From Paracoccaceae bacterium (GTDB lineage: Bacteria; Pseudomonadota; Alphaproteobacteria; Rhodobacterales; Rhodobacteraceae): a stretch of DNA of 64,000 nucleotides. Shown here in pieces: positions 4,791-51,707 of the stretch (its first letter is position 1; every line of letters starts with the position of its first letter). A model generated the notes under the pieces. It was not told where the DNA came from, ran no database searches, and saw nothing but the letters and a program-made list of their open reading frames with translations. The stretch spans positions 17,966 to 81,965 of the forward strand of contig WFQE01000227.1 in NCBI GenBank assembly GCA_015487165.1. The letters are read 5' to 3'. Both the position numbers and the translations under genes were made by a program.

Positions 4791-4870
4791 AAACGCGTTC
4801 CCCTGTTCACAATGCCCGGTTGAAACACCGAGAACGTGCAAACAATGGCCGATTGGACTGGAGGCGTCAA

Positions 4871-7399: not shown

Positions 7400-7909
7400 A
7401 TGGCGGACACCTATGTAACGAGTGACAAGCTGCCTGTTACGTTGTGGACGGAGCTGGTGAAAGCTGGTCTGGTCGGGCGGACAATCTATGTGAAGATGTC
7501 GCACCCAGATGCTGAGGGCTCGAACCGGGGAGCGACGCTCCGCGAGCGGATAGTTCGAGACATTGTTGAGCGCCACTTTGACAAGAAACCGATCCTGAAG
7601 AGCGAGCTCAAGGACACTTACATGGTGTCCGACTCGCTGATCGAAAAGGCCGTTGCCGAGGCCAAGAAGCGGCTCGGTCTTGGCTCCGAGTTTCGGTACT
7701 CGAAATTCCGTGGCGGGTTCGTGCGACGCACCCAGCTCAAGACGCATCTTGACCGTAAGGCCCGTGTTTCTCGGCCAGGCCGAATCGTGCGTCCGAAGAA
7801 GGAGCAGGACGCGCCTGCGAAGAAAGGCCGCAAGTCGTCGCTGCCGGGCTTTGAAAAGCCGTTCCGTCCCATTCGCCCGGAAGACCTGATCATTGACAAG
7901 GAGGATTGA
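7400..7909 (+). CDS. hypothetical protein with basic K/R/P-rich C-terminus (possible relaxosome accessory factor)
   Basis: ATG 7400 (track start 7376 is TTG). The functional guess rests only on its position between the relaxase and T4CP genes. Confidence 0.55.
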   Translation: MADTYVTSDKLPVTLWTELVKAGLVGRTIYVKMSHPDAEGSNRGATLRERIVRDIVERHFDKKPILKSELKDTYMVSDSLIEKAVAEAKKRLGLGSEFRYSKFRGGFVRRTQLKTHLDRKARVSRPGRIVRPKKEQDAPAKKGRKSSLPGFEKPFRPIRPEDLIIDKED

Positions 7910-7911
7910 CG

Positions 7912-30355: not shown

Positions 30356-30555
30356 TGATGACAGGAAGGCGCGGAGCATGGAAAGCCCGCGCGATAATCT
30401 TCAGCCGCTCAACCTGAATTGAAACGGCACAAGAATCAGGTGCGATTATGGTCCTGGGCGATTTTTCTGTCAAGGGCTGCTATGCTTTGCGGCATAATGG
30501 AAGGTGTTTTAGATTTCGTCATTCGGAAATAGAACAACGAGAACGAGGAGGCGTC

Positions 30556-31350
30556 GTGCCAGGAACAGGGGGAGGGCATTCGCCGTATGAGGTTCCGTCG
30601 GATCCGGCCGCACGGCTGTTGATGCCCCCGTCGCGGGAAGACATTCGCCAGTTGTCGGTGATGCTGGCCAGGGAGCAGGACAGGGATCGTGTGCGCCGGG
30701 GGCCTGGCCGGCCAGCAGAGGAGGCCTCGGCGTTGGCCAAGGCGGTGGGGTGTTCATGGAGCACGGCCAAGAGCTGGATTGAGGGCGAGTCGTTTCCGAA
30801 CAGGAAGTCCTACCAGGCGAAGCTGGAGGAGCTGATCGAGGAGCACTTTCCGTCGGCGGAGATTCGGGTGTCGCCGCAGGAGGCGCATTTGCTTCGATTC
30901 TGCGCCAAGCAGTTGCGGGAGAGCGCCGGAGCGGCCGGCGCCTGGGCGGCGGCGAAGCTGGAACACGAGATTCGGAACTGCAATGCGCCGGACATTGCCA
31001 GGCTGGCGGTGATGCTGGCCAAGCGCCGGAGCAAGGACGATGGCCGCATGGGGCCTGCCGCGGCGCTGGCCGAGGCGGTGGGCTGCTCGTGGAATGCGGC
31101 CCGGGCATGGATCGCCGGGCGCTCGGAGCCCAGGCGCGAGGAGTACAAGGCGAATATCGAGGCGTTGCGAAAGGAGTTTGCCGGCCGCATGTCGTTCACG
31201 ATGTCCAGGACGCTGGCCTCGATGCTGCTGGTGGTCTGCGCCGACCTCCGGATCCTGTTCGGTTCGACCGGAGAGGAACTGGCCGAGCGGATGGAGCGGA
31301 TGGTTCTGTCGGTGTATCCGGACATGGAGGGTCAGTTGTTGCGGGAATGA
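30556..31350 (+). CDS. protein with two tandem XRE-like HTH modules
   Basis: GTG 30556 follows GAGGAGG (alternative ATG 30622). Internal repeat LAKAVGCSWSTAKSWIEGESFPNRKSYQAKLEELIEEHF / LAEAVGCSWNAARAWIAGRSEPRREEYKANIEALRKEF. Confidence 0.55.
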   Translation: MPGTGGGHSPYEVPSDPAARLLMPPSREDIRQLSVMLAREQDRDRVRRGPGRPAEEASALAKAVGCSWSTAKSWIEGESFPNRKSYQAKLEELIEEHFPSAEIRVSPQEAHLLRFCAKQLRESAGAAGAWAAAKLEHEIRNCNAPDIARLAVMLAKRRSKDDGRMGPAAALAEAVGCSWNAARAWIAGRSEPRREEYKANIEALRKEFAGRMSFTMSRTLASMLLVVCADLRILFGSTGEELAERMERMVLSVYPDMEGQLLRE

Positions 31351-31405: not shown

Positions 31406-31435
31406 TTGAACGCTTACACCTAATCGTGGTATCAT
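31406..31435 (+). promoter_or_regulatory. TTGAAC-N18-TGgTATCAT promoter
   Basis: Extended -10, 26 nt upstream of ATG 31462. Confidence 0.45.
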
Positions 31436-31461
31436 CGAATATCCTTGCAAGGAGGTGTTCG

Positions 31462-32025
31462 ATGAGGCCGGTTGCCCCGACGAGAAGCCCGCTAGTCATC
31501 AAGCGCGATGGCCGCACGACGACGAGGATGGTTCCGAAACCGCGAATCGTGGTGGACACGCGCGAGCAGCGGCCATACGACTTTTCGCGTTTCGGCAACT
31601 GGCTGGATGGCACGGTGAGCAGGGCCTTGGATACGGGCGACTATGCCATCGAGGGCATGGAAGACGTGGCCCGCATCGAGCGCAAGACGCTCAACGATTT
31701 GGTGCGTTCGCTGATGACAGACCGGCCGCGGTTCCTGCGCGAGATGGAGCGCATGGCCAGCTTCCCTCACAAGATGCTGTGCATCGAGGCCTCGCTGTCC
31801 GAGGTCAAGAGCCCGTATGGTTTCGCGGACGGCGTGAAGGCGCACCCGAACGGGGTTGCCGGCAGCCTGGCGGCGATTTCCGCGCGGCATGGCATCCAGG
31901 TGGTGTTTGCGGACACGCGCGATCTGGCCGAGGAGCTGGTGGCGTCCTGGCTGTCGAAGCTGCACGCCTATGAGTGGTTGGAGCGCGAGGGGCTGGGGCG
32001 CGTGTTGCAGGAGGGCGATCTGTGA
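31462..32025 (+). CDS. ERCC4-type (XPF/Mus81-like) nuclease domain protein
   Basis: ATG follows AAGGAGG. IVVDTREQ, GDYAIEG and IERKTLNDLVRS fit the ERCC4 GDxn-ERKxxxD signature. Confidence 0.75.
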   Translation: MRPVAPTRSPLVIKRDGRTTTRMVPKPRIVVDTREQRPYDFSRFGNWLDGTVSRALDTGDYAIEGMEDVARIERKTLNDLVRSLMTDRPRFLREMERMASFPHKMLCIEASLSEVKSPYGFADGVKAHPNGVAGSLAAISARHGIQVVFADTRDLAEELVASWLSKLHAYEWLEREGLGRVLQEGDL

Positions 32026-32525
32026 GAGGGCGTACTCCGGCGCCGGTTCCATTGGGGCTCACATTGTCCTCGACCGCCATCTGCATCCTGGTGTTGCTGG
32101 TCGCCGCGCTGGCATCCGACATTTCTATCCCCGATTTTTCTGTCGGGCGCAATCTGCGCGTGTTCGAGGCGGTCAACCGCTGGTTTCCCGTGAGCGCCTG
32201 GCTGGCGTTGTCGGCGGCGTTCGGATGGGTGCGCGTTCGCTTGTCCCGTGCCGCCAGGGAACGGCACAAGTCGGCCTGGGAGATTGTCTGGAGCGGGACC
32301 GTCCGGAATGCGGATGCGACATGGATTCTTTGGACCGTGCTGGCCTTCCTGGGCAAGGTTGCCTATGCCTACGCGGTCCTGGACGTGGAAACCACCTGGT
32401 TGTTCAAGGCGTCGGTGGTTTGCTGGGGTGCGGCGTTGTACCTGACGAGCCACGTTGCGGCGTGGGTGTTCATTTTGAACGGCCGCATTCCCAAGGCCAA
32501 CAGGGCCATTGAGGTGAGAGCATGA
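32022..32525 (+). CDS. membrane protein (4 TM)
   Basis: GTG 32022 in a GTGA overlap with the previous stop, GGAGGG SD. Hydrophobic helices throughout. Confidence 0.55.
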   Translation: MRGRTPAPVPLGLTLSSTAICILVLLVAALASDISIPDFSVGRNLRVFEAVNRWFPVSAWLALSAAFGWVRVRLSRAARERHKSAWEIVWSGTVRNADATWILWTVLAFLGKVAYAYAVLDVETTWLFKASVVCWGAALYLTSHVAAWVFILNGRIPKANRAIEVRA

Positions 32526-33280
32526 GGATGAAGTTGTTCGTGATTGCCAGCGCGTTGCTGGCGCAGTTTCCCGCGGCCGCCATGGCCGTTCCGTCTTCCG
32601 TGATCGCGGGAGCGACCGCGGCGATTGTCGCCACAAGCCATCACGCGCCGAAGGGGCTGCGTGCGCGCTTCTTCAGCCGCCAGGCCTGCGACCAGGTGGT
32701 GGACAAGCGTTACTTCCACATCTGCTACGACTACCGCGCCAAGGGCGCCAGGTATGTCGGCTATGTGCTGGACGGCAGCAAGGTGGATGCGGTGAACATC
32801 AAGAAGCGTCCGCGGTTCTATCCCGAGATGGCCATTCCCGCGCGTTACCGCACCTATCCGTCGGACTACACGCACAACGAGTTCCATGCCGACCGCGGGC
32901 ACCTGGCCCCGGATGCGAGCTTCGACTGGTCGAGAGCCAGCCTGCGGGAAACCTACTCGATGGCGAATGTCATCCCTCAATACTTCCGCATCAACCGCAA
33001 GACATGGATCAAGGCCGAGAAGTATGAGCGCCTGGTGGCCCGGCGTCTGGGTCATGCCGTGGTGCTCAATGGCGTCGAGTACGGCGATTACAGCCACAGG
33101 CTTCGCAAGAGCGGCATTGCCATTCCGGTGGCCTTCTGGAAGGCCATCTGGAACCGGGAGCGGGGTTTCCGGCGCTGTTTCTATTACCGAAACCGGCCGA
33201 TTACTGCGCGCGAGGCGGAGCGCGACCGGCTTCGGGATCACGAGGTGGTTTGCGACAGGCTGCTCGGCAGGCTCCGATGA
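32522..33280 (+). CDS. secreted DNA/RNA non-specific endonuclease (NucA/Serratia nuclease family)
   Basis: ATGA overlap. Signal peptide MRMKLFVIASALLAQFPAAAMA. Catalytic ADRGHLAP and SMANVIPQ motifs. Confidence 0.8.
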   Translation: MRMKLFVIASALLAQFPAAAMAVPSSVIAGATAAIVATSHHAPKGLRARFFSRQACDQVVDKRYFHICYDYRAKGARYVGYVLDGSKVDAVNIKKRPRFYPEMAIPARYRTYPSDYTHNEFHADRGHLAPDASFDWSRASLRETYSMANVIPQYFRINRKTWIKAEKYERLVARRLGHAVVLNGVEYGDYSHRLRKSGIAIPVAFWKAIWNRERGFRRCFYYRNRPITAREAERDRLRDHEVVCDRLLGRLR

Positions 33281-34386
33281 GCGCCAACTGGCGCAAGACC
33301 AACATCCACCCCTTGAGGGCCTTGCGAACGACGGCGGAAATGTTCGGCGTCTCGGAGGACATCGTGTTCTGGCCGTATCCGGGAAGGGACGAGGCCTACA
33401 GGCGCATCAGGGAGCAGATGCCGACGCCGGAGTTCCTCGCCGAGCGGGAGATGCTTCCGAGACTCGGATTCCGGATGTCCCAGGACGACATGATCGTTCC
33501 GGCAATGCAGGCGATCTTCGATGCGTTCGGCCGCCGGATATTCTACGAAGACGCCGATTTGCACGAGCGCCTAGTTCAAACCGACCTGAAGGACGTGCCG
33601 ACCACGATGCTCGCGCTGCCGTACCCGGCGATCTATGTCGCGTTCGGGCAGCAGGGCAGGTGGAAATTGTTCGATGCCGAGACGGGGGAACACCCGGTGG
33701 ATGGCGCGTATCTCTATTTCCGGCCCGTGTCGGAGGGTGGTATCAAGACCCACCCCCTGTTCGTGCCGCTGTTCGAGGGGGCGGCGCACACGATTACCAT
33801 CAGCATCACGGCGTTGCCGAACGAGAACAGCTCGAATCTGCTGGACGATGCGAACCAGTGGGTATCATTGCCGATCCGCGAGGACGCGATGGTGGCCGAG
33901 GTGGTGGAGGAGAGCTATCGGATTGGCGAGGAGTTCCGCAAGCAGATCGGCGACCGGATCAGCCAGGTGCACATCCGCCAGAATGCCAGGACGGTGCGCG
34001 ATATAACGCTGCACCTGGCCAAGTTCATCCTGTACATGAACATCCCCGATGTTCGGAACAGGATGGTTCGTCTCGATGAGCGCGACCGCCATTTGGCCGA
34101 GGCGGAAAGGCGGAAGGGCAAGAAGGCCGAGAAGGCCAGACGCAAGGCGGCGCGCAGTTTCAACGTGGTTCGGATTATCGGCCCTGAGCCGGTTGGCGGT
34201 TCAGGGGTTGCGAGCGGCTCTGGCCGAACGGTCCGTCCGCACTGGCGGCGCGGGCATTTCCGGATGCAGCCCTATGGCCCGGGCCTGAACAAGCGCAAGT
34301 TGGTGTGGATCGAGCCGGTGCTGGTCAACCGGGACGATCTGGGCGCGGCTTCCGAGCCCGGCGGGGAGAGGTATCGAGTGCGCTGA
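33277..34386 (+). CDS. hypothetical protein (369 aa) with basic C-terminal RPHWRRGHFRMQPYGPG motif
   Basis: ATGA overlap with the nuclease gene. No domain recognised. Confidence 0.6.
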   Translation: MSANWRKTNIHPLRALRTTAEMFGVSEDIVFWPYPGRDEAYRRIREQMPTPEFLAEREMLPRLGFRMSQDDMIVPAMQAIFDAFGRRIFYEDADLHERLVQTDLKDVPTTMLALPYPAIYVAFGQQGRWKLFDAETGEHPVDGAYLYFRPVSEGGIKTHPLFVPLFEGAAHTITISITALPNENSSNLLDDANQWVSLPIREDAMVAEVVEESYRIGEEFRKQIGDRISQVHIRQNARTVRDITLHLAKFILYMNIPDVRNRMVRLDERDRHLAEAERRKGKKAEKARRKAARSFNVVRIIGPEPVGGSGVASGSGRTVRPHWRRGHFRMQPYGPGLNKRKLVWIEPVLVNRDDLGAASEPGGERYRVR

Positions 34387-34423: not shown

Positions 34424-35584
34424 CTAGGCGTCCAGCAACCGCATGAGCTCGCACATTCGCTTCCGGACATCGGATTCAGGGAACAGGATCTTCTCATCGT
34501 CGAACAACGAGCGCCCAAACCGGAAACCCTCCCAGGCTTCGTCGTGTTCGTGGTGAACCTGCGGCAGTGACGCGAAATCGGGAAGGAACCCATTCCCGAT
34601 GGGATAGGGGACATGGAACGAGAACGTGTCCTTGATGCCATCGGCGCGAACTTCCAAGAAATAGAGCGAATAATAGTGCTCGTTCACGTTCACCACGCAT
34701 CCGTGGCAGTCCATGATCTCGTCCATGTTGTCGAAGAAGAATTCGTTCGCCGTGCGGTAAAGGCCGCCCCGCCTTTCCTCGCGGAAGATGTCGAGATGCA
34801 ACGGGCATAGGTCGAACCGGAACCTGTGAGGGTTCTCCGGAACGTAGGCGGACAGGGTGGCGAAGCCCGAGCGGGCCAGGATGGCGACCGCCTGGTGCTT
34901 CAGCTTCCAGAGCTCCATTTCTGCGTGGATATGCTCATATCTCCGTTCCGGTTTCCTGGCGCGGTCGGCCAGAAGGCTCCGCTCCTTGGCCCAGCGGTTG
35001 GCCCACATGGTCCACATGGCCAACTCCATGGTTCTGGCCAGGCGGATGTCGCCCGTTGCGGCCCATGATGCGACCCGTTGCCTGATCGCTTCGCGCGTTT
35101 TCTCGCGCATGGCCCTGTTTCTCTGCCGGCTTTCGGCCGCCTTGGCTGCACTGCCGGCCCTGGCCTTTCGGGCTTCCCGTGCGTGCTCCTCCCGCCATTC
35201 GGCCACCTTGTCATGCGCCTTGAGCGCGCCCAGCGCGTCGTACTGCGGGACTTCGAGCGTCTTTCCGTACTTGCTGACCTCGATCAGGTGGGACACTGGC
35301 AAGCGGCCATCCTTGGTCCACCGCAGCCGCTCCGTCTTGGTGATGCCGAGCAGCGTCTCGATGTCCGGCCCGGACAGGGCGGTTTCCTTCCGGAAATCGG
35401 AAAAGAACCACCGTAGCGCGAGCTCGGATGAGGAGATGCGAGCGATGACATCCGAGACGAGCGTTGCCTTGCGGGTCGAGGCGGGGGCATTGAGCCACTC
35501 GGCGAGTTTCGCCTTGGGCACCTGCCCCACGACGCGGGTGAGGTTGAGGCGAGACAGGATGGGCTTGGGATGTTGTTCAGCCAT
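34424..35584 (-). CDS. hypothetical protein (386 aa)
   Basis: ATG 35584 follows GGAGG, 13 nt downstream of the ThyA-like stop. Confidence 0.6.
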   Translation of the reverse strand: MAEQHPKPILSRLNLTRVVGQVPKAKLAEWLNAPASTRKATLVSDVIARISSSELALRWFFSDFRKETALSGPDIETLLGITKTERLRWTKDGRLPVSHLIEVSKYGKTLEVPQYDALGALKAHDKVAEWREEHAREARKARAGSAAKAAESRQRNRAMREKTREAIRQRVASWAATGDIRLARTMELAMWTMWANRWAKERSLLADRARKPERRYEHIHAEMELWKLKHQAVAILARSGFATLSAYVPENPHRFRFDLCPLHLDIFREERRGGLYRTANEFFFDNMDEIMDCHGCVVNVNEHYYSLYFLEVRADGIKDTFSFHVPYPIGNGFLPDFASLPQVHHEHDEAWEGFRFGRSLFDDEKILFPESDVRKRMCELMRLLDA

Positions 35585-35597
35585 GCAGACCTCCGGC

Positions 35598-36512
35598 TCA
35601 CACCGCGAATGGGTACTTGATGGGCGGATGCGCCTGGTATTGATCCAGCTCAAAGCTGTCGGCCGTCACCCATGTGTCAATGTCGTTCAGGCTTCGGATG
35701 AACGGATCAATCCGCACGATGGGCTCGGGATAGAGATCGTCGGCCCGTTCGAGCTGCTGCCCGAACAGATCCACCTGGTCTTCATAGATGTGGGCGTTGA
35801 TGACCGTGTGGAACACGGTTTTCGGATTCTTGTTCGTGATCTGGGCCATCAACCTGAGCAGCAGCCAGCATTGCAAGGTGTTGACAGCCCCGCCGATAGG
35901 CAAGTCCATGGACCTCTGGGTACTGTGTAGATACAAATCGTCGCCCACGAGCGAGAAGACGTGCTCGTACATGCAGGGGCGCAGGCATCCAAGCTCGATT
36001 TCGCCGGGATTGTAGAACATGAGGATCTCGCCCCGGTCGTCAATGCCGCGCGAGAGGTGATCCACGATCTTGGCGAGCTGGTCGAACTCGGTGCCGTCGG
36101 GACGGCGATAGCGGCGGCCCTGGACGCCATAGATGCGGCCGCAGTCGTTCTCGCCCTTGCGGTTCGGGTTGGCGAGCCATGCGGGTGTCTGGTTCGCGTT
36201 GGCGTACCAGGACTTTGTTCCGAGCCGCTCGAACTCGGCGGCGTTGTCCACGCCGCGCAGGTATCCGACGATCTCGGCCGCGGCGGTGCGGATGCCCATC
36301 TTGCGCGATGTAAGCACGGGCGCGCGCTCGGTGGATGCGTCCACGACGAAGCGGTGGCCAATGACGGTCTTGCATCGCTTGCCGGTTCGCGCGTTCTCGA
36401 TCCAGGTTCCTTCCTCGATGATGCGCCGGCCCAGCTCCAGGTAGGCCGTCTCAAACCGTTCGCAGGCGTCCTGCGTTCCGGTTTCCGGATTTGGCATGGT
36501 CTTCACGTTCAT
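35598..36512 (-). CDS. thymidylate synthase (ThyA) family protein, divergent
   Basis: Internal ATG of track ORF 35598..37619. Colinear with ThyA: ARTGKR, IYGVQGRRY, LRPCMYEHVF (catalytic Cys), TQRSMD...AVN, NAHIYEDQ, ends IKYPFAV. Confidence 0.8.
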   Translation of the reverse strand: MNVKTMPNPETGTQDACERFETAYLELGRRIIEEGTWIENARTGKRCKTVIGHRFVVDASTERAPVLTSRKMGIRTAAAEIVGYLRGVDNAAEFERLGTKSWYANANQTPAWLANPNRKGENDCGRIYGVQGRRYRRPDGTEFDQLAKIVDHLSRGIDDRGEILMFYNPGEIELGCLRPCMYEHVFSLVGDDLYLHSTQRSMDLPIGGAVNTLQCWLLLRLMAQITNKNPKTVFHTVINAHIYEDQVDLFGQQLERADDLYPEPIVRIDPFIRSLNDIDTWVTADSFELDQYQAHPPIKYPFAV

Positions 36513-38659
36513 GCTGCTCTCCTTTCGGCGTATTGCCGCATGTCGAACGGGACGATGGTGAACGGGGGCCAGTTCATGGCGAGCAGGCGCCCGTAGGATT
36601 TCCCGTGGATTCGGTTGTCGAGGATGATGATGTGGCCCCGGTCCAAGAGATCCCGGATCAGGCGTCCGATCATCTGGGTCAGGCGCACGGACGCGGACGG
36701 CAGGGTGTGATCGTAGAACGGATTGCCGCCGCTTTGCTTGATCCATTCCATGCGCTTGTTTTCGATTGGGGTATCGGGCACGGCGAAGGGCACGCGCGGG
36801 ATGATGACCACGTTGCACAAGTTGCCAGGCAGGTCCACGCCTTCGGCGAACGAGGCCAGTCCGAAGATGATGCTTTTCTCGCCCTTGGCGATGCGCTTCC
36901 GGTGGCTTTCGATGATGCGCGATTTGCTGTGGTTGCCCTGGGCCAGCACGAGCCCCGCGATGTCGGGTCGCATCTCCTGGAGCAGTTCCAGTACCCTGTC
37001 CATGTAGCGGCGGCTGGTGAACAGGCCGAGGATGCCGCCGGAGTTCTTCTCGGCGGCACCGATGACGGCGCGCGCGGTGATGGCGGGATGGTCCTCGTGA
37101 TTGGGATTCACGCCGCCGGCGGCGATGTAGATGCGAGATTCGGAATAGGGGAAGTCGGACAGGAAGTGCCCGGTATCGTGCGCGCGGCCGAGGTTCAGGC
37201 CGACGTTGCGGATGAACATGTCGAAGTTGCCCAGCGAGCGCAGGGTTGCCGAGTATGCCGCGCCGGCCAGTGCCTTGTCCCAGAGCAGTTGATGGAGCAT
37301 GCGCGCGGCGGAGACGGGGTAGGCGTTGATGCGCCGCTTGGCGAGGTTGTCGCGTCCCGTCTCGCATTCGATCCAGCGCGCGGTCGGAAGGTCTGGAGCG
37401 TCGCCGTCGAGGAGCGCGTCGAGGCAGGCGGCGATCTTGCCGAAGCGTTCGGCGAAGAGTCCTGCGCGCGAGGTGGCCTTGGCGATGGCGTCCTTGTCGC
37501 CGTCGGAATCGCCGAGCGCATCGAGCAGCACCGACAGTTTCTTGATGGCGGCATCCGTGGCCGAGCGCAGTCGCTTGGCCGGCTCGGCGAGCGCCTCGGG
37601 CGGCACGTCGAACATCCACGGCTTGCCGTCCTCGAAGGCCTGCGTATTGGCGTCCAGCGCGGTCTGGATCTCCATCAGGGCATCGCGCATGGGCGTTCCG
37701 GCCTCGGCCGCTTCCTTGAGCAGTTCGATGACCGTTTCCTGGTTCGTGGCAAGGCCGCGGGCCAGCTTGTTCATGGTATTGGCGAAGTTGGCCACGAGGG
37801 CGATGGAGCCCTCGACCTGGAAGTTGGAGCCGAGCTGTTCGACGGCCACCTCGGGGATGCGGTGGGCCTCGTCAATGAGGTAGATGGTGTTTTCCGGCTT
37901 GGCCGGGATGACGCGCCCGCCGCCGGCGGCGAGGTCGGTGAGCAACAGGGCGTGGTTGACCACCAGCACGTCGGCCTGGTAGAGCGCCTTGCGCGCCTTG
38001 TAAAAGGGGCAATTGTCGTACATCGGGCAGCGGCTCTTGCTGCACGCCGCCGCTTCAATGGTGGCGCTGGCGCGCACTTCTGCGCTCAGGGCGCCGTCCC
38101 ATTCGTCCAGGTCGCCGTTCCAGCTACCGGAATCGAACTTCTGGAGCATGTCGGAGAGCTGGTCGGCCGCGGCGCCGGAGATCGCGGCGTCCGATGTGAA
38201 CTCGTCGTCCGCGAACATGTCGGGCGTGAGGCTTTCGCCGATGGCGCCCATGACCTTGTTGGGGCAGAGGTAGCGACCGCGACCCTTGACCAGCCGGAAG
38301 TCCAGGTTGATGTCCAGCATGCGTTGAAGGTTGGGCAGGTCGCGCTCGAAGATCTGGTGTTGCAGTGCGACGGTTCCCGTCGAATAGACGATGGTGATGC
38401 GGTCCGGCTCGTCGGCGCCGTTCTTCTCGGCCGCTTCCTTGAGCGCGGCTTCCAGCGCCGGCCTGGCGGCCAGCGCCCCGATCAGCGATGCGTAGCTCTT
38501 GCCGATGCCGGTTCCGGCCTCGCATACGGCAATGCGGCCGCGCGCGATGCTGTCGGCGATGCGCTCGCTCATGGCGATCTGGCCTTCCCGCCGCACCAGG
38601 CCGTGCTTGGCGAGTTGGCGAAAGAGTCGCTCGATGTTTTCCTGAATTTCGGCGTTCAT
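36509..38659 (-). CDS. DinG/XPD (Rad3)-family ATP-dependent helicase with Fe-S cluster cysteines
   Basis: Walker A CEAGTGIGKS, DEAH box LIDEAH, Cys cluster C..CSKSRCPMYDNC, C-terminal QMIGRLIR. ATGA overlap with the ThyA-like gene. Confidence 0.85.
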   Translation of the reverse strand: MNAEIQENIERLFRQLAKHGLVRREGQIAMSERIADSIARGRIAVCEAGTGIGKSYASLIGALAARPALEAALKEAAEKNGADEPDRITIVYSTGTVALQHQIFERDLPNLQRMLDINLDFRLVKGRGRYLCPNKVMGAIGESLTPDMFADDEFTSDAAISGAAADQLSDMLQKFDSGSWNGDLDEWDGALSAEVRASATIEAAACSKSRCPMYDNCPFYKARKALYQADVLVVNHALLLTDLAAGGGRVIPAKPENTIYLIDEAHRIPEVAVEQLGSNFQVEGSIALVANFANTMNKLARGLATNQETVIELLKEAAEAGTPMRDALMEIQTALDANTQAFEDGKPWMFDVPPEALAEPAKRLRSATDAAIKKLSVLLDALGDSDGDKDAIAKATSRAGLFAERFGKIAACLDALLDGDAPDLPTARWIECETGRDNLAKRRINAYPVSAARMLHQLLWDKALAGAAYSATLRSLGNFDMFIRNVGLNLGRAHDTGHFLSDFPYSESRIYIAAGGVNPNHEDHPAITARAVIGAAEKNSGGILGLFTSRRYMDRVLELLQEMRPDIAGLVLAQGNHSKSRIIESHRKRIAKGEKSIIFGLASFAEGVDLPGNLCNVVIIPRVPFAVPDTPIENKRMEWIKQSGGNPFYDHTLPSASVRLTQMIGRLIRDLLDRGHIIILDNRIHGKSYGRLLAMNWPPFTIVPFDMRQYAERRAA

Positions 38660-41910: not shown

Positions 41911-42579
41911 ATGTTCAAGGCATGGCTCAACGACATGGAAATGGGCGTGGGAGAAACGCCGGAAGAAGCAATCCAGGATGCGCTGCGCGAGGCGCATGAG
42001 CAGGGCCTCATCGGCGGCGAATACCCGCGGTTCCCGACCGATGATGATTTCCTGGCCGAGCTTTCCGTCGAGGAATGCGCGGACGAGGACGAGAAGGATG
42101 GCGATGACAGCCAGGAGAGCTGGGCGGTAAGAACGAATCGCCCCATCTACCAGGAAGGAGCCCGCGTTCGGCACCCGGAACTTGGAGAGGGCGAGATCAT
42201 CAAGGTCGAGCACTTACCTCGTGCCGACAGGCTGACGGTTCGCTTTGGCGATCAGACGGAAGAACTGTATGGCCACGAACCGCTGAAGGGCAGCGACGAT
42301 CCGAAGATGTTCGTTGAGGCGGATCCTGCGCCATTCATGCTTCGGGCGGCATACCGGCTCCCCGAGCGCCTGCCGTATGCCGGCTGCGGGAACGGGTACA
42401 TCGTCGTGGACATGGAAAGCGGCGAGGTATGCAGCATGTCTTATGCTGACGATGGCTACTCGCTCGTGACCGAGCAGAACGTCCTCATGTCCGAAGATGC
42501 GGGGAAGGTGCTGAGAGTGGACGGCAAGCATGTTGTCGTCCGTGCCAATTTCTCCTGCTGGAGTGCGTGCCTGTTCTGA
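41911..42579 (+). CDS. hypothetical acidic protein
   Basis: ATG 41911 lies 6 nt after GAGGTG (track start 41902 is GTG). Confidence 0.55.
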   Translation: MFKAWLNDMEMGVGETPEEAIQDALREAHEQGLIGGEYPRFPTDDDFLAELSVEECADEDEKDGDDSQESWAVRTNRPIYQEGARVRHPELGEGEIIKVEHLPRADRLTVRFGDQTEELYGHEPLKGSDDPKMFVEADPAPFMLRAAYRLPERLPYAGCGNGYIVVDMESGEVCSMSYADDGYSLVTEQNVLMSEDAGKVLRVDGKHVVVRANFSCWSACLF

Positions 42580-45500
42580 TGAAAGACTGGGCGCGCGATC
42601 TTGCGGAACACCGCAGCAAGGGCAGCCGGGCAAAGCGTCCCGGCTCCCTTGCCGGTTTGGCCGCCGCCAGGCGCGAGCACGAGGGGCAGTTTTTCACGCC
42701 CGACTGGCTGGCGCGCTCGTTGTGGCGGGTTGTGGAGCATGTGCGGTCATCGGTGCGGGGCCAGCGTCCCGTGGCGGTATTTGACGGCAGCATCGGCTCC
42801 GGCCGCCTGGTCCAGTTTGCGCGCAAGCACGAGCATGTCGTGTTCGGTTGCGACGTGGACGAGCCGCTGGTGGAAAGGCTGGCGGTCGCGGCCGAGGCCG
42901 GCGGCGTGCTGGGCCGCATTGCGGCAATGGGCATGGAAGAAGCGCGCCCGCGGAATATGGACGTGGCGCTGATCAATCCGCCGTTCTCGGTTCACCTGGA
43001 GTCGCCGGCGATGGCCGAGTATCCCTGCACGCATTTTGGCCGTTTCGGGCCGCATACGTCGGCGCTGTCGCACGAATATGCGCTGCACCAGGCGCTGGAT
43101 GCGGCGCCGGTGGTGGCGGCGATTCTGCCGGCCACCTATGCGGCCGAGGTTGAGCGGGACGCGAGCCTGGCTCCGAGGCTGCGGGCGCTGGTGGACGTGC
43201 CGGGCAATGCCTTTGCCGAGGAAGGCGCGCAGGTGCGCGTGTCCGTGGCCGTGTTCGGCGCGGAGAGGGGCAAGAACGAGCATGTGCGCCGGATGCCCCT
43301 GGCCGATTTCGATTCCGATTCCCTGGATTGGCTGGCGTTCGAGCCCGCATGGGGGACGGCGGCGCTGGGGTCGGTCTATCACGATCCGGGCGAGCCGGTG
43401 GTGACGCGCCCGGTCACTGGAGACAGGCGGGTGCGTATCGTGCTGGCCGGCCGGCGCGTCCGGTTGATGTTCGCGTGCGGCTATGCCGAGGCGCGGGTGC
43501 TGAACGCGATCTACCGCGCGCGCATTGACCGCAGGCGCGGCCCGGATGCCGTGCGGTTGCCAAGCGGCGTGCGCTACGAGGGCGAGGGGTTGCTGGATGT
43601 CGAGGCATGGCTGGCGACCGGAAATCCGGCGGCCTGCCTTGAGCGCCTGGAGCGCGAGATTCGGGGTGTCGGTTTCGATCCGGTTGTGGACGAGGCCGTG
43701 GCGAACCGGCTGCGGAAGCTGGAGCGCAGGACGCGCATCGAGCGGGCGCCGTTTGGCCGCTGGATATTCCGGCCGGATGGGGAAGGGGACGGGCGCTTCG
43801 AGGCGGTTGCGCGCCGGACGTGGCTGTGCGAGCCGACGAACCTGGCCGCTCCGGCCGTGATGCGCGGCGAGCGCATTGAAGTGGAACGCCGCGGCGGTCG
43901 GTTCTGGATCGAGGATGGTGGCCGCAAGTGGGAGATTCCGGCGCACGAGTTCTACGAGTTCTTCGAGGCGGATACGGGAACGGGGCAGGGCGGCGCCGGC
44001 CAGTGGGTCGAGATCGTCGAGCCGTTGCCCCGGCGGTTTCCGGCGCAAGCCGCCGCCGTGCGTGCCCGGGCGCTGCGCGCCGGGGTGGACGGAATGCTGA
44101 CCTGGAGCGATTACCAGTTTGCCGATCTGGTCGAGGTTCTGATGAAGCGCGCGGCCATCGTGAGCTGGGACACCGGACTGGGCAAGGCGCGCCTGGCCGT
44201 GGCTCTCGTGCTGGCAAGCGAGTGCAGGCGCGGCCTGATCGTGGTCGAGGCGGGCCTAATAGACGAGATGAAGGCGGAGCTTGCCGGTCTGCCGATTCCG
44301 GCTTCCGAATGGCAGGTGATCGAAACGCCCGGGCAGGCGCGGGATTTGCGCCGCGTCAACGTGATCTCCTACACGCGGCTGCGGATGCAGGTCGAGCGGG
44401 GGAGCAGGCGCAACTATGCGAAGCTGATGCGGCGAAGGTTTGGCATCGTGGTGGCCGACGAGGCGGACATCCTGTGCAATCCGAACAGCCAGCAGTCGCG
44501 CGCGGTGGCGCAGCTTGCGCCGAAGCGCCGCTATGCGCTGTCGGCCACGCCGGCGCGCAACTATCCCCGCGACCTGCATCCTCTGTCGGTGTGGACGGCG
44601 GGCGACGGCACGGCCGCGCAGCCGTATGGCTGGCGCAGGGCTTACATGACGCCGGAGTTGGCGCGCTCGATGGCCGAGTCCCGGCGCGGCATTGACCGAT
44701 TCCGGGACGACTTCATCGTGACCGAGTGGGTGACGAACGAGTTTGCCGAGGAGAACCGCGAGGGCGCGAAGCGCGAGGTGCCGAAGATTGCGGACGTGGT
44801 TCGCTATCGCGAGTGGCTGGCGCCGCTGGTCAAGCGCCGCGTGGTCGGCGAGCCGGACGTGGCCCGCTACGTTTCGATCCCGGAAGGCGAAACCGAGGTT
44901 CGCGAGGTCGAATGGGACATGGAGCACCTGGCCTTCTACCTGCGCGTGGCTGACGATTTCGCGGAATACTGGCGGCGGGTGAAGGACGGCCGGGAATCGA
45001 ACAACCTGGCCCGGATTCTGGCCCGCATCAACGCGGTGTGCGTGGCCGCGAGCTGCCCGCAGATGGCTCCCCTGGGCCTGCGGTGGAGCGGAGGGCTCAC
45101 GAGCAAGCAGCGGCGCGTCGTGGACGATCTGGCGGAGCTGGCGGGGCAGGGGCGCAAGGTCGTGTTCTATGCCCGCAACGTGATGACGCTGGAGCTGGTG
45201 GGCGAGGGGTTGCGGCAGCGGGGGATCGAGGGCGTGCTGTATCACGGCGGCATGCCGCGCGAGAAGCGCACCGTCGAACTCAACCGGCGATTCCGCTATG
45301 GCGACGCGCCGGTGCTTCTGGCCTCGCTGGGCATCACCCAGAAGGGCCTGAACTTGTGGCAGGCCGACACCACCTATTTCTTCGACCGATCCTGGGAGGC
45401 GCGGACGGAATACCAGGCGCGCAACCGGATTGAGCGGCCGCAGCAGACGCGCAAGCCCCGGCACCTGTTCCTGCATCTGCCGGGCAGCATTGACGAATAC

Positions 45501-45689
45501 GAGCGGCAAATGGTGGAGATGAAGGCGGACGCGATACAGGCGGGTCTGGACTGGGGAGATCCGCGGCTGGCCGACCAGGAGTTTGTGCATCTGGACACGA
45601 TTCTCGGCCGTTTCGTCGAGGACCTGGCGAAGCTGCACGGGTATGCGAGCGGCCATGATTTCCGGGATGCGGTGAAGGTTGCGGCCTGA
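42579..45689 (+). CDS. fusion protein: N6-adenine DNA methyltransferase domain + SNF2/RAD54-family helicase domain
   Basis: TGATG junction. MTase motifs GQFFTPDWLA, FDGSIGSGRL, LINPPFS. Helicase motifs IVVADEADIL, LLASLGITQKGLNL, QARNRIERPQQ. Confidence 0.85.
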   Translation: MKDWARDLAEHRSKGSRAKRPGSLAGLAAARREHEGQFFTPDWLARSLWRVVEHVRSSVRGQRPVAVFDGSIGSGRLVQFARKHEHVVFGCDVDEPLVERLAVAAEAGGVLGRIAAMGMEEARPRNMDVALINPPFSVHLESPAMAEYPCTHFGRFGPHTSALSHEYALHQALDAAPVVAAILPATYAAEVERDASLAPRLRALVDVPGNAFAEEGAQVRVSVAVFGAERGKNEHVRRMPLADFDSDSLDWLAFEPAWGTAALGSVYHDPGEPVVTRPVTGDRRVRIVLAGRRVRLMFACGYAEARVLNAIYRARIDRRRGPDAVRLPSGVRYEGEGLLDVEAWLATGNPAACLERLEREIRGVGFDPVVDEAVANRLRKLERRTRIERAPFGRWIFRPDGEGDGRFEAVARRTWLCEPTNLAAPAVMRGERIEVERRGGRFWIEDGGRKWEIPAHEFYEFFEADTGTGQGGAGQWVEIVEPLPRRFPAQAAAVRARALRAGVDGMLTWSDYQFADLVEVLMKRAAIVSWDTGLGKARLAVALVLASECRRGLIVVEAGLIDEMKAELAGLPIPASEWQVIETPGQARDLRRVNVISYTRLRMQVERGSRRNYAKLMRRRFGIVVADEADILCNPNSQQSRAVAQLAPKRRYALSATPARNYPRDLHPLSVWTAGDGTAAQPYGWRRAYMTPELARSMAESRRGIDRFRDDFIVTEWVTNEFAEENREGAKREVPKIADVVRYREWLAPLVKRRVVGEPDVARYVSIPEGETEVREVEWDMEHLAFYLRVADDFAEYWRRVKDGRESNNLARILARINAVCVAASCPQMAPLGLRWSGGLTSKQRRVVDDLAELAGQGRKVVFYARNVMTLELVGEGLRQRGIEGVLYHGGMPREKRTVELNRRFRYGDAPVLLASLGITQKGLNLWQADTTYFFDRSWEARTEYQARNRIERPQQTRKPRHLFLHLPGSIDEYERQMVEMKADAIQAGLDWGDPRLADQEFVHLDTILGRFVEDLAKLHGYASGHDFRDAVKVAA

Positions 45690-49394: not shown

Positions 49395-50301
49395 GCGCGC
49401 GCGGGAGCTGGCAGACATGGGTAAGAATTTACGGTTTTCGACACCTTCCCCTACCAGGCCAATGGTTCGTTGGCATGGCGGCAAGTGGAAGTTGGCCCCT
49501 TGGATAATCAGCCATTTTCCTCCTCATAAGATTTATGTGGAACCGTTTGGTGGCGGAGGTTCTGTGTTGCTGAGGAAACCGAGAAGTCCTGCCGAGGTGT
49601 ACAACGACGTGGACGGTGAGATCGTGAATCTCTTTCGCGTCGCTAGGGACAATGGCTCGCAGCTCATTGAATTGCTGCGGCTCACGCCATTTTCGAGAGA
49701 TGAGTTTGAATTATCGTATCAATCCACGACTGATCCAGTTGAACGGGCAAGAAGGACTGTTGTTCGGTCCTTCATGGGTGTTGGAAGTAATGCTCATGCC
49801 GCCCGAACAGGTTTTAGGACTGGGTTTCGGCATCAACGAAAAGGAATGACGGCCGCCAGTGACTGGGCCAATTATCCGGCAGCTCTGGTTGCGACAATCG
49901 AACGCTTGCAAGGCGTCATTATTGAAAATATGGATGCGTTTTCGTTGATCAAGAAAATGGATTCCGAAGAGACGTTATTCTACGTTGATCCTCCCTATCC
50001 ATTTGTGGTTAGGGACAAGGGGAGAGATTATCGGTATGAATTGAATGATGATGCCCACGTTCGGTTGGCAGAAATCCTCTCTGAACTGAAGGGGATGGTC
50101 ATTATATCGGGTTACGATTGTGAGCTATACCGTCAGTTGTATGGCGAATGGAAACGCCTGCAAAGAAAGACATACACTGCAACCGCCAAGTCCAGAACAG
50201 AAGTGTTGTGGATGAATAAGGCGTGTATGTCACGCTGCCGCCCTTCCTTGTTTGAGAATCACCCGATCCGCCAACCCATTGCTTCTGGAGGTGCAGAATG
50301 A
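49369..50301 (+). CDS. Dam-like (D12-class) N6-adenine DNA methyltransferase
   Basis: WHGGKWKLAPWI, YVEPFGGGGSV and FYVDPPY motifs. Start ambiguous (49369/49387/49417). The body is visibly lower in GC than its neighbours. Confidence 0.8.
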   Translation: MSETDRMLERARELADMGKNLRFSTPSPTRPMVRWHGGKWKLAPWIISHFPPHKIYVEPFGGGGSVLLRKPRSPAEVYNDVDGEIVNLFRVARDNGSQLIELLRLTPFSRDEFELSYQSTTDPVERARRTVVRSFMGVGSNAHAARTGFRTGFRHQRKGMTAASDWANYPAALVATIERLQGVIIENMDAFSLIKKMDSEETLFYVDPPYPFVVRDKGRDYRYELNDDAHVRLAEILSELKGMVIISGYDCELYRQLYGEWKRLQRKTYTATAKSRTEVLWMNKACMSRCRPSLFENHPIRQPIASGGAE

Positions 50302-51707
50302 GCTCTCGTCCTCCCCTGATCCGCATTTCGACCGACGAGCTGGTGGTGGACTCGTTCGCCGGCGGCGGAGGCGCGAGCATCGGCATCGAGCAGGCGATTG
50401 GCCGACATGTGGACATCGCCATCAACCACGATGCAGAGGCCCTGTCCATGCACGCGGCCAACCATCCGCACACCCGTCATTTGCGTTCCGACATCTGGGA
50501 GGTGGATCCAATGGAGGCCACCGGCGGCAAGCCCGTGGCCTTGGCCTGGTTCAGCCCGGACTGCAAGCATTTCTCGAAGTCGCGCGGTAGCAAGCCGGTG
50601 GAGAAGCGTATCCGGGGGCTGGCCTGGGTGGCGGTGCGTTGGGCCAAGGCGGTGCGGCCGCGCATCATCTTCCTGGAGAACGTGGAGGAGTTCCAGGAGT
50701 GGGGTCCGGTGATTCCGAAACTGGACGCGGACGGCAAGCCGGTCATCGGCAGGGACGGGCGGCCGGTCATGGTTCCATGTCCTGCGCGCCGCGGCGTGAC
50801 GTTCCGGCGTTTCGTCAATGCGCTGCGCGACCTTGGCTACAGGGTTGAATGGCGCGAGTTGCGCGCATGCGACTTCGGCGCGCCGACGATCCGCAAGCGG
50901 CTGTTCCTGGTGGCGCGCTGCGATGGCCTGCCGATTGTCTGGCCGGAGCCGACGCATGGCGATGGCCGGCTGCCATACCGGACAGCGGCCGAGTGCATGG
51001 ACTGGGACGTGCCTGCGCCGAGCATCTTCGGCCGCAAGCGGCCCTTGGCCGAGGCGACGATGAAGCGCATCGCGCGCGGGCTGGAGAAGTTCGTGCTGTC
51101 GGGAGAGCCGTTCATCGTGCGCGACAAGGCGGCCTGGGTTATCAAGCATTTTGGCGGCGTGACCGGGTGCCGGATGGACCAGCCGTTCCCCACGATTCTC
51201 TCCAAGGGGGCGCAGAACCAGTTGGCGACGGCGACGCTTGCGCCGGCGGTTGCGCCTTACATGGTGAAGCTGCGCGGTTCCTGCCGCCACGGCCAGCGCA
51301 TGGATTTGCCCGCGCCGACGGTCACGGCCGGGGGCAACCATCTTGGCCTGGTCAACGCGTTCCTGGTCAAGTATTACGGCACGGCCATCGGTCAGAGCTT
51401 GCATGAGCCTGTTCACACCATCACCTCGAAGGCTCGTTTCGGGCTGGTATGCGCGGCCGGGCGGCAGCACATGATCGCCGACATCGGCATGCGGATGCTG
51501 ACGCCGCGCGAGCTCTACCGATGCCAGGGATTCCCCGAGCACTACGAGATCGAGCACGGCGAGCGGGGTGAACGGTTCACCAAGACGGCCCAGATCAGGA
51601 TGGTGGGCAACTCCGTTTCGCCGCCGGTGGCCCGTGCCATCGTCCGCGCCAACGTGATTGCGGAGGTGCGACAGCACGCGGTCGAGTCGGAGGCAGTCAC
51701 GGCATGA
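50298..51707 (+). CDS. DNA (cytosine-5) methyltransferase
   Basis: VDSFAGGGGAS (motif I), SPDCKHFS (PC motif IV), FLENV (VI), CQGFP, GNSVSPPVA (X). ATGA overlap with the Dam-like gene. Confidence 0.9.
   Translation: MSSRPPLIRISTDELVVDSFAGGGGASIGIEQAIGRHVDIAINHDAEALSMHAANHPHTRHLRSDIWEVDPMEATGGKPVALAWFSPDCKHFSKSRGSKPVEKRIRGLAWVAVRWAKAVRPRIIFLENVEEFQEWGPVIPKLDADGKPVIGRDGRPVMVPCPARRGVTFRRFVNALRDLGYRVEWRELRACDFGAPTIRKRLFLVARCDGLPIVWPEPTHGDGRLPYRTAAECMDWDVPAPSIFGRKRPLAEATMKRIARGLEKFVLSGEPFIVRDKAAWVIKHFGGVTGCRMDQPFPTILSKGAQNQLATATLAPAVAPYMVKLRGSCRHGQRMDLPAPTVTAGGNHLGLVNAFLVKYYGTAIGQSLHEPVHTITSKARFGLVCAAGRQHMIADIGMRMLTPRELYRCQGFPEHYEIEHGERGERFTKTAQIRMVGNSVSPPVARAIVRANVIAEVRQHAVESEAVTA

Follow-up and report, generated by a model that had tools for sequence, protein, structure and literature searches.

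Cells tolerate non-specific nucleases of the NucA family only when the enzyme is inhibited or exported, as exemplified by Anabaena NucA/NuiA. There is precedent for mobile elements blocking transformation by means of an exported nuclease (review PMC12378983), and the nucleases of the elements CJIE2 and CJIE4 are reported to reduce natural transformation in Campylobacter (review PMC12378983). A different mode of action is represented by AcrVA2, an anti-CRISPR protein of Moraxella bovoculi that acts alone against the mRNA of one specific protein and for which the HxRxxH residues H286, R288 and H291 are required (mutants H286A, R288A and H291A; AcrVA2 paper). AcrVA2 belongs to the same family (PF26125) as FinQ, the fertility inhibitor of IncI-type plasmids, and most members of this family are carried by mobile elements. 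The third relevant group comprises the nucleases XPF, Mus81 and Hef, which share a nuclease-domain fold and a GDxnERKx3D signature.

Relatives of all three groups occur side by side in a block of four genes, G1 to G4, in the stretch of DNA analyzed here, 64,000 nucleotides from a Paracoccaceae bacterium (hereinafter, the window). A sequence-only reading of the block had proposed one coordinated two-compartment nuclease system. The analysis reported here favors another view, namely, that the block, carried by a MobH-type conjugative element, is probably a mosaic in which genes of conflict and of DNA processing are transcribed together but are otherwise independent.

The gene block and its carrier element

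Positions 31462-34386 of the window contain four plus-strand ORFs, and examination of the sequence and the ORF list confirms the successive overlaps, GTGA, ATGA and ATGA, by which the sequence-only reading had linked them. G1 (31462..32025, ATG start) encodes an ERCC4 nuclease domain protein of 187 amino acids (PF02732); G2 (32022..32525), with a GTG start that overlaps the G1 stop as GTGA, a small membrane protein of 167 amino acids with approximately four transmembrane segments; G3 (32522..33280, ATGA overlap with G2), a non-specific endonuclease of 252 amino acids (PF01223); and G4 (33277..34386, ATGA overlap with G3), an AcrVA2/FinQ-family protein of 369 amino acids (PF26125, HxRxxH). Codon usage favors the annotated frame over the other five for each of the four genes; the weakest score is that of G2 (0.135, compared with -0.006 or lower in the other frames). 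The GC3 of the four genes is 0.79-0.85.

The Shine-Dalgarno sequence AGGAGG (31450..31455, plus strand) lies 6 nt before the ATG of G1 and is itself preceded by a candidate sigma-70-like promoter on the same strand (31406..31435; TTGAAC, 18-nt spacer, TG-TATCAT), with 9 of the 12 consensus positions matched and a TG extension before the second hexamer. The promoter proposed at this position is recovered by a consensus scan, but the number of promoter-like sites in the region (2, compared with 0.8 +/- 1.1 in shuffled sequences) is not above expectation, and the site is not significant alone. No terminator-like site was found after G4, and the next gene (34424-35653) is in convergent orientation. 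The four genes are probably co-transcribed as one block. Compact packing of an operon accounts for the 4-nt overlaps, and the genes are accordingly expressed together; that the proteins act jointly does not follow.

The window is part of a MobH-type conjugative element, a plasmid or an ICE, with genes for a MobH/TraI_2 relaxase, a TraG/TraD coupling protein, a VirB1-like transglycosylase and a primase. The block sits in the accessory region of this element, and the accessory genes (DUF4326, DUF3085, DUF6927, an orphan C5 methylase, SNF2 and DinG helicases, ThyA and TnpB) form a set typical of such elements. Upstream of the block, on the same strand, lies a gene for a 300-aa protein with two internal helix-turn-helix (HTH) repeats (30448..31350; AALAxAVGCSW..W; weak HTH/YdaS-type Pfam matches at two positions), a candidate regulator judging by its sequence. 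Neither a CRISPR array nor a known RNA was found near the DinG-like helicase gene, and a blastn search of phage and plasmid collections with the locus yielded no match.

An AcrVA2/FinQ-family protein, two nucleases and a membrane protein

Judging by sequence features and a structural model, the 369-aa G4, previously described as an unknown protein, belongs to the AcrVA2/FinQ family. A precomputed match to PF26125 (AcrVA2-like) is present on G4 and on all of its 43 homologues; searches of NCBIfam and of a local copy of Pfam that lacks the PF26125 model produced no match. The C-terminal sequence RPHWRRGHFRMQPYGPG, to which the sequence-only reading had drawn attention, is indeed present and is the best-conserved part of the family. 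The motif HWRRGH, an instance of HxRxxH (H322-W-R324-R-G-H327), is conserved in the family alignment of 34 sequences, where H322, W323, R324 and G326 never vary and H327 almost never does. When the AlphaFold2 (AF2) model of G4 (pLDDT 78, pTM 0.81) was compared with the PDB using Foldseek, the only significant matches were the crystal structures of AcrVA2 (7CI2_A, 7CI1_A and 7CI1_B; E=7e-8 to 5e-7, probability 1.0, TM 0.44-0.53), the following match having E=0.14. The model also resembles phage proteins that share the AcrVA2 fold. Sequence searches of the PDB with phmmer and with the family profile missed AcrVA2, which was found by the fold search alone.

The predicted likeness of G4 to AcrVA2 encompasses the domain, the motif and the three-domain fold, whereas the two proteins are only 13-15% identical when aligned by structure. 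Divergence of the N-terminal region is seen both among AcrVA2 orthologues (AcrVA2 paper) and in the G4 family alignment. G4 resembles most of the family in being encoded on a mobile element and differs in the translational coupling of its gene to that of a nuclease, an arrangement absent from the other contexts examined; the AcrVA2-like homologues occupy unrelated contexts, T6SS loci among them. By this likeness, the divergent N-terminal part of G4 would recognize one particular protein of a host defense system or a rival element, and the C-terminal HxRxxH domain would then trigger the loss of the mRNA of the recognized protein. The precedents for such mRNA loss are AcrVA2, for which it has been shown with Cas12a, and FinQ, for which it has been suggested with the F transfer genes. 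Of Cas12a itself, the present host gives no evidence. The target of so divergent an AcrVA2-like protein could broaden polypeptide-specific mRNA silencing beyond Cas12a.

Identification of G3 as a DRGH nuclease of the NucA type holds up well: the protein matches PF01223 (Endonuclease_NS) with 116.9 bits (cut-off 23, E=1e-33) and PHROG 14168 with E=6e-44, and, in the alignment with EndoG structures, its ADRGHLAP segment corresponds to DRG(H) and its SMANVIPQ segment to SNVAPQ. The catalytic His of DRGH and the Mg-binding Asn of NxxPQ, shared by the Serratia nuclease, Anabaena NucA and EndoG, are thus conserved in G3, which differs from these enzymes in its smaller size, in its location on a conjugative element and in that no gene for a NuiA-type inhibitor was detected beside it. 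On the question of whether the second or fourth gene encodes such an inhibitor, neither G2 nor G4 matches this type in Pfam (E<=0.1) or NCBIfam. The N-terminus of G3 is signal-peptide-like by hydropathy (MRMKLFVIASALLAQFPAAAMA; R2/K4, hydrophobic residues 5-23, AMA before VP).

G3 shows 38% identity, over 83% of its length, to nucA of the Campylobacter prophage CJIE4 (E=1e-36); its identity to nucleases encoded on conjugative plasmids of Campylobacter is 37%. The GC content of the window is 62%, and that of the contigs bearing the nearest G3 relatives is 26-42%. G3 shares its Pfam family with CJIE4 nucA and, like the CJIE2/CJIE4 nucleases, is carried by a mobile element; it has a putative N-terminal export signal and differs from these nucleases in the host lineage. 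By description, it is also comparable to CJIE1 Dns, of the group of transformation-blocking nucleases in Campylobacter, and to IdeA/SxnA of Vibrio ICEs, which set a precedent for ICE-encoded DNases of the periplasm. G3 would be exported via Sec and would degrade naked DNA, whether periplasmic or extracellular; by analogy with CJIE2/CJIE4 and IdeA/SxnA, this activity would lower the natural transformation of the host, and lowered transformation would protect the element from curing or displacement by recombination. G3, encoded on a conjugative element, adds a candidate from beyond Campylobacter and Vibrio to the nucleases that block transformation.

G1 matches PF02732 (ERCC4) over residues 31-161 with 45.4 bits (cut-off 24, E=1e-11) and PHROG 3490 with E=1e-14, and the profile of its family matches the nuclease domain of Pyrococcus furiosus Hef (1J22, E=1.7e-12). 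The motifs already noted in its sequence, VVDTREQ (D32, R34, E35), GDY (D60/Y61) and ERKTLND (E73, R74, K75, D79), align to VVVDSRE, GDY and ERKSAND of Hef, and all the residues listed are invariant across 35 homologues. The catalytic motifs of both G1 and G3 are intact. The signature and the fold of the XPF/Mus81/Hef nuclease domain are kept in G1, but here the domain stands alone: neither a helicase nor an (HhH)2 domain was detected, the Pfam matches at E<=0.1 including no HhH family. The nuclease domain is followed by 26 residues that end in a tail, GRVLQEGDL, an invariant feature of the protein's own family. Relatives of this stand-alone, approximately 187-aa ERCC4 protein are encoded in 408 species genomes, where they were recovered from contigs by an alignment-based scan (a single-sequence scan gave nothing), and are spread over many bacterial phyla without a fixed partner gene. 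On the basis of fold and context, G1 would cut branched DNA (flaps, forks and junctions) during replication, recombination or establishment of the element. Follow-up of G1 could open up an uncharacterized but very widespread family of stand-alone bacterial ERCC4 proteins.

The description of G2 as a protein with four transmembrane segments holds for three of them, which are above the hydropathy threshold (residues 13-31, 102-120 and 133-151), whereas the fourth (around 54-70) is weaker; the distribution of Arg and Lys is consistent with an N-in/C-in topology. G2 has no match in Pfam, PHROG, PADLOC or NCBIfam, and a word-indexed search of 5.8 billion clustered proteins yielded no homologue. Exhaustive HMMER search of 1.84 billion representatives retrieved only a 62-aa fragment of G2 itself and four weak matches, three of which are short repeated stretches in very long proteins. 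The single-sequence AF2 model (pLDDT 54, helices only) was not taken into the fold search. To judge from its sequence, G2 is an inner-membrane protein unique to this element and occupies a slot that is variable among its relatives.

Linkage of the genes in other genomes

No NucA-type or AcrVA2-like gene was found near the ERCC4 gene in any of 80 loci, within the available flanks of up to 10 kb per side. These loci come from species genomes with relatives 42-64% identical to G1, drawn from the 408 genomes that encode a relative; the flanks extend to at least 2 kb on both sides in 46 of the 80 loci and to at least 5 kb in 38. The loci have almost no other gene of the window in common, and the immediate neighbors, assessed by Pfam scans (clustering of stop-to-stop ORFs was too noisy in high-GC loci), are heterogeneous, with no Pfam family present in more than 4 of approximately 72. 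In these other contexts, the ERCC4 gene lies beside an integrase, beside a ligase and an SNase, beside a 5'-3' exonuclease and an RNase T-like gene, or among small unknown genes, and some relatives occur in apparently chromosomal, non-mobile contexts. In the case of NucA, 39 metagenome loci, mostly short contigs, encode relatives 36-63% identical to G3; none has G1, G2 or G4 nearby, a weak result given that flanks of 2 kb or more on each side are available for only 5 of the 39. The G3 homologues of Campylobacter plasmids and prophage have unrelated neighbors.

The order ERCC4, NucA, AcrVA2-like is retained only in close relatives, with different genes interposed. In the closest of these, L047/L048, an HTH gene (48% identical) is directly upstream of ERCC4 (76%), as in the window, and is followed by a gene for an unrelated soluble protein of 127 amino acids and by NucA (81%); in L047, the 127-aa gene overlaps the nucA start by ATGA, as G2 does in the window, and the NucA homologue likewise begins with a signal-like segment. 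In L002, the C-terminus of NucA (79%) is followed by four other genes and an AcrVA2-like gene (53%), so that NucA and the AcrVA2-like gene lie within 2.5 kb of each other; no HTH gene is present in the 2.5-kb contig stretch upstream of the latter. On the MobH plasmid of Rhodoferax T118, which lacks NucA, an AcrVA2-like gene (25%) is directly upstream of ERCC4 (51%). A general association of these two genes, suggested by the Rhodoferax plasmid, was rejected, as none of the 80 other ERCC4 loci shows it within the flanks covered.

Competing readings of the block

In the loci covered, ERCC4, NucA and AcrVA2-like genes are not co-conserved beyond close relatives. The sequence-only reading, in which an ERCC4 nuclease in the cytoplasm and NucA in the periplasm are linked by the membrane protein and the fourth component into one coordinated two-compartment system, therefore appears very unlikely, and it is equally improbable that such a system would serve to exclude incoming DNA or act in defense or counter-defense. 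It draws on the translational coupling of four genes behind one promoter-like site, on the shared order of ERCC4 and NucA in L047/L048 and on the proximity of NucA to the AcrVA2-like gene in L002. These observations are set against the lack of partner genes in the 80 ERCC4 and 39 NucA loci, the absence of a G2 homologue, with an unrelated soluble protein in its place in L047, and the four extra genes in L002; moreover, AcrVA2, the characterized relative of G4, acts alone. No PADLOC model matches G1-G4 (E<=0.01), and no description of the four-gene combination, which the sequence-only reading had not recognized as a described system, was found in the literature. Two of the genes could plausibly take part in conflicts over incoming DNA or in counter-defense; the coordinated system fails the co-conservation test that the sequence-only reading itself had set.

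The ATGA overlap with the nucA start, common to G2 and the 127-aa gene of L047, could suggest that these non-homologous proteins are analogous partners of NucA, either an immunity protein or chaperone for the nuclease before export or a membrane factor for its export or retention, with ERCC4 and the AcrVA2-like protein as bystanders. The known need of NucA-family nucleases for an inhibitor or export is compatible with this scheme, but the two candidate partners are dissimilar, one membrane and the other soluble, and neither matches NuiA or any other Pfam family; the nuclease homologues in Campylobacter have no comparable neighbors, and the G2 model is uninformative. On balance, such a pairing is doubtful. 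It is also unlikely, if somewhat easier to entertain, that the block is an early-expressed operon for entry into new hosts, under Aca-like control by the double-HTH protein, in which the AcrVA2-like protein would silence a defense protein and ERCC4 would remove DNA structures that are generated by defense or block replication. The membership of G4 in an anti-CRISPR and fertility-inhibition family, the HTH-ERCC4 pairing kept in L047 and the abundance of genes typical of plasmid anti-defense regions (orphan C5 methylase, DUF4326) fit this possibility; an exported nuclease is, however, ill-suited to an intracellular anti-defense role, ERCC4 relatives are apparently not confined to mobile contexts, and L002 has no HTH gene in the stretch covered.

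The mosaic reading, under which the block combines three independently mobile genes of kinds known from mobile elements with one lineage-specific gene, is the likely one. As far as sequence comparison goes, the block does not appear to be a dedicated multi-protein system, given that its components do not co-occur across distant genomes; the tight 4-nt overlaps and the single promoter candidate would also be expected of a functional operon. This result removes a candidate 'new system' and names its parts, chiefly G4 as a member of the AcrVA2/FinQ family on a conjugative element; the value of G1, G3 and G4 as leads is independent of the four-gene arrangement.

There is only a slim chance that, in this lineage of MobH elements, ERCC4, the exported NucA and the AcrVA2/FinQ-like protein form a selected module for protection 'inside and outside' the cell, with the variable gene before nucA (here, G2) encoding a membrane or immunity partner. 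It is just as hard to credit that such a module would share a single promoter controlled by the double-HTH protein encoded upstream and that the AcrVA2-like protein might rely on a linked nuclease. Nevertheless, some selective linkage may exist within the element lineage, considering that the gene order is kept across three related elements and that ERCC4 and AcrVA2-like genes are adjacent on the Rhodoferax plasmid.

Layout and expression of the block

The block is a run of four overlapping ORFs on the + strand that encode an ERCC4-type nuclease (G1, 31462–32025, 187 aa, ATG start), a membrane protein (G2, 32022–32525, 167 aa, GTG start), a NucA-type nuclease (G3, 32522–33280, 252 aa) and an AcrVA2-like protein (G4, 33277–34386, 369 aa). 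The GTGA, ATGA and ATGA overlaps reported in the sequence-only reading are confirmed by the ORF list and by direct reading of the sequence. An AGGAGG motif lies 6 nt ahead of the G1 ATG and, for all four genes, the codon-usage score is highest in the annotated frame among the six frames; the weakest of the four scores is that of G2, as expected of a membrane protein. The promoter-like site proposed at 31406–31435 is recovered by the scan, but the number of sites (2 in 4.5 kb, with 0.8 ± 1.1 expected from shuffles) is not significant by itself; the terminator scan found no site between G4 and the convergent downstream gene. The four genes are probably co-transcribed.

The four proteins

The identification of G1 as an ERCC4-type nuclease holds (Pfam ERCC4, 45 bits; PHROG ‘ERCC4-type nuclease’), and its VDTRE, GDY and ERKxxxD motifs are invariant across the family. 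This family is compact (~187–230 aa), and a search with its profile hit the solved nuclease domain of Hef (1J22); the likeness to Hef lies in the nuclease domain, and no helicase or (HhH)2 domain was detected in G1. The family has a C-terminal tail of its own, GRVLQEGDL, with ...LQEGDL almost invariant in the family alignment A1. In the window (32009–32025) and in L047, one of two MAG contigs (L047/L048) from close relatives of the element, the QEG codons yield AGGAGG right before the stop; in the window, this is the Shine-Dalgarno sequence for the GTG start of G2, and in L047, the next gene begins 70 nt downstream.

In G2, three hydrophobic segments stand out clearly and a fourth is weaker; the charge distribution fits an N-in/C-in topology. 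It matches nothing in the family libraries, has no homologue among 5.8 billion clustered proteins, and an exhaustive HMMER search over 1.84 billion representatives yielded a 62-aa fragment of G2 itself and four weak, non-credible matches; its AF2 model is of low confidence.

The NucA-type assignment of G3 is borne out by Endonuclease_NS (117 bits) and by the DRGH histidine and Mg-site asparagine, which align to the EndoG and NucA structures. The N-terminus resembles a Sec signal peptide, as does that of the 81%-identical homologue in L047, and G3 is predicted to be exported. Among annotated proteins, G3 is closest to nucA of the Campylobacter prophage CJIE4 (38% identity, E=1e-36) and to nucleases that Campylobacter conjugative plasmids encode amid their tra genes. 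A review (PMC12378983) attributes lowered natural transformation, through degradation of incoming DNA, to the nucleases of CJIE2 and CJIE4, to CJIE1 Dns and to the periplasmic IdeA/SxnA DNases of Vibrio ICEs. Most likely, G3 limits the uptake of foreign DNA and would affect transformation. The G3 gene shares the 62% GC of its surroundings (GC3 0.82), and its closest metagenomic relatives (L008–L046, 50–63% identity) lie on contigs of 26–42% GC, a difference suggesting that the gene crossed between distant lineages long ago and has since ameliorated.

G4, initially taken for a 369-aa unknown, belongs to a named family: the precomputed Pfam assignment is PF26125, ‘AcrVA2-like’, for G4 and all 43 homologues. 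The RPHWRRGHFRMQPYGPG stretch noted at its C-terminus is the invariant core of this family and contains the HxRxxH residues, the counterparts of AcrVA2 H286, R288 and H291, which are required for activity (bioRxiv 10.1101/2022.11.29.518452). An AF2 model from the family alignment (pLDDT 78, pTM 0.81) matches, within the PDB, the AcrVA2 crystal structures alone (7CI2/7CI1, prob 1.0) and also matches uncharacterised phage proteins, some from large Erwinia and Dickeya vB_*M phages. AcrVA2 binds the nascent Cas12a N-terminus, causing loss of the Cas12a mRNA, and its homologues, which include the plasmid fertility inhibitor FinQ, are widespread on mobile elements, mostly in hosts lacking Cas12a (bioRxiv 10.1101/2022.11.29.518452). 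G4 would act on its target as a silencer of the AcrVA2/FinQ type. Less closely related AcrVA2-like genes are found in T6SS loci or amid hypothetical genes on plasmids. The T6SS-embedded PF26125 homologues (L003, 10001–11002; L004, 10001–11182; L133/L134, 6001–7179; ~25–28% identity) adjoin VgrG, PAAR, TssF/G/K and Imm71/72 in 3/3 contexts examined in the clade, a pattern suggesting that one branch of the AcrVA2/FinQ family is linked to T6SS.

Gene order inside and outside one element lineage

The four-gene order is not conserved across genomes, and the layout is shared only by close relatives of the element, which diverge at just those positions on which the proposed system depends. L047 and L048 are collinear with the window and carry an HTH gene (48% identity), ERCC4 (76%), a gene for an unrelated soluble 127-aa protein in the position of G2, and nucA (81%, truncated where the contig stops), in this order; on the Logan contig L002, the terminal part of a NucA homologue (79%) is followed by four other genes and then an AcrVA2-like gene (53%). 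The MobH plasmid of Rhodoferax ferrireducens T118 has an AcrVA2-like gene (25%) directly upstream of ERCC4 (51%) and lacks NucA. On this evidence, the ERCC4, NucA and AcrVA2-like genes are backbone or accessory genes with variable slots between them, and these three are kept in order within one element lineage.

Outside this lineage, they travel separately. G1 relatives occur in 408 species-level genomes; the 80 loci retained cover many phyla, including Acidobacteriota, Nitrospirota, Desulfobacterota, Verrucomicrobiota and Chloroflexota as well as bins labelled Methanospirillum and Saccharimonadales; 0/80 have a NucA-type or AcrVA2-like ORF in the flanks, almost none of the other window genes are common to them, and each Pfam family among the ~72 immediate neighbours occurs in at most 4. 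Among the closer relatives with annotated contexts (61–67% identity), one adjoins a tyrosine integrase at an island end, one follows DNA ligase and SNase genes, one lies upstream of a 5'-3' exonuclease gene and, farther off in the same direction, an RNase T-like gene, and others sit among small unknown genes. Given these varied contexts, the ERCC4 family has no fixed partner; its frequent DNA-processing neighbours fit a presumed action on branched DNA, the putative substrate of G1 itself. Genes reminiscent of defence (ARPP-1 with REase-ARP, ADP-ribosylglycohydrolase, McrBC, PLD, UDG) are occasional neighbours. G1, G2 and G4 were absent near all of the closest metagenomic G3 relatives (up to 63% identity), which is weak evidence, as most of these contigs are short.

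The most plausible reading of the block is, accordingly, a mosaic of independent conflict and DNA-processing genes expressed together, and not the coordinated two-compartment nuclease system first proposed: G1 would be a structure-specific nuclease, G2 a lineage-specific membrane protein, G3 an exported DNase and G4 a putative silencer. A functional link confined to this lineage may nevertheless exist, above all one between nucA and the variable gene to which it is translationally coupled, and would be the main residual novelty of the block. None of the four genes matches a PADLOC model, and a literature search found no paper describing the combination.

The conjugative element around the block

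The window is a conjugative element, with a MobH/TraI_2-type relaxase (4820–7231), a TraG/TraD coupling protein (7906–9414), a VirB1-like transglycosylase and a Toprim/zinc-finger primase. Near the block lie genes of the kinds usually present in accessory regions of conjugative elements (DUF4326, ThyA, DinG-like helicase, DUF6927, SNF2 helicase, DUF3085, orphan C5 methylase and TnpB), and the locus has no DNA-level match in the reference phage and plasmid collections.

Upstream of the block, a 300-aa protein with two HTH-like modules, AALAKAVGCSWSTAKSWIEG and AALAEAVGCSWNAARAWIAG (30448–31350, +), keeps its position directly before the ERCC4 gene in L047/L048 and may be a dedicated regulator. 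The convergent gene directly downstream of G4 (34424–35653, −) encodes a 409-aa protein for which Pfam, PHROGs, PADLOC and NCBIfam gave no match; a portion of this gene adjoins G4 on L001, a short Logan contig. The DinG-like helicase (36509–38659, −) matches PADLOC ‘type IV-A CRISPR-associated DinG’ (E=4e-110), its gene abuts that of thymidylate synthase (35598–36500, −), and neither a CRISPR-like tandem array nor an Rfam match was found in the window. A TnpB/Cas12f1-like protein (PF07282, 21523–23046, +) is inserted in the accessory region, and its absence from the compact relative L047 is consistent with expansion of the element by IS insertions. A 1040-aa SNF2-type helicase with C-terminal similarity to DpdE (42567–45689, +) is followed, a few kb downstream, by an apparently orphan C5 cytosine methyltransferase (50298–51707, +), both typical mobile-element conflict genes.
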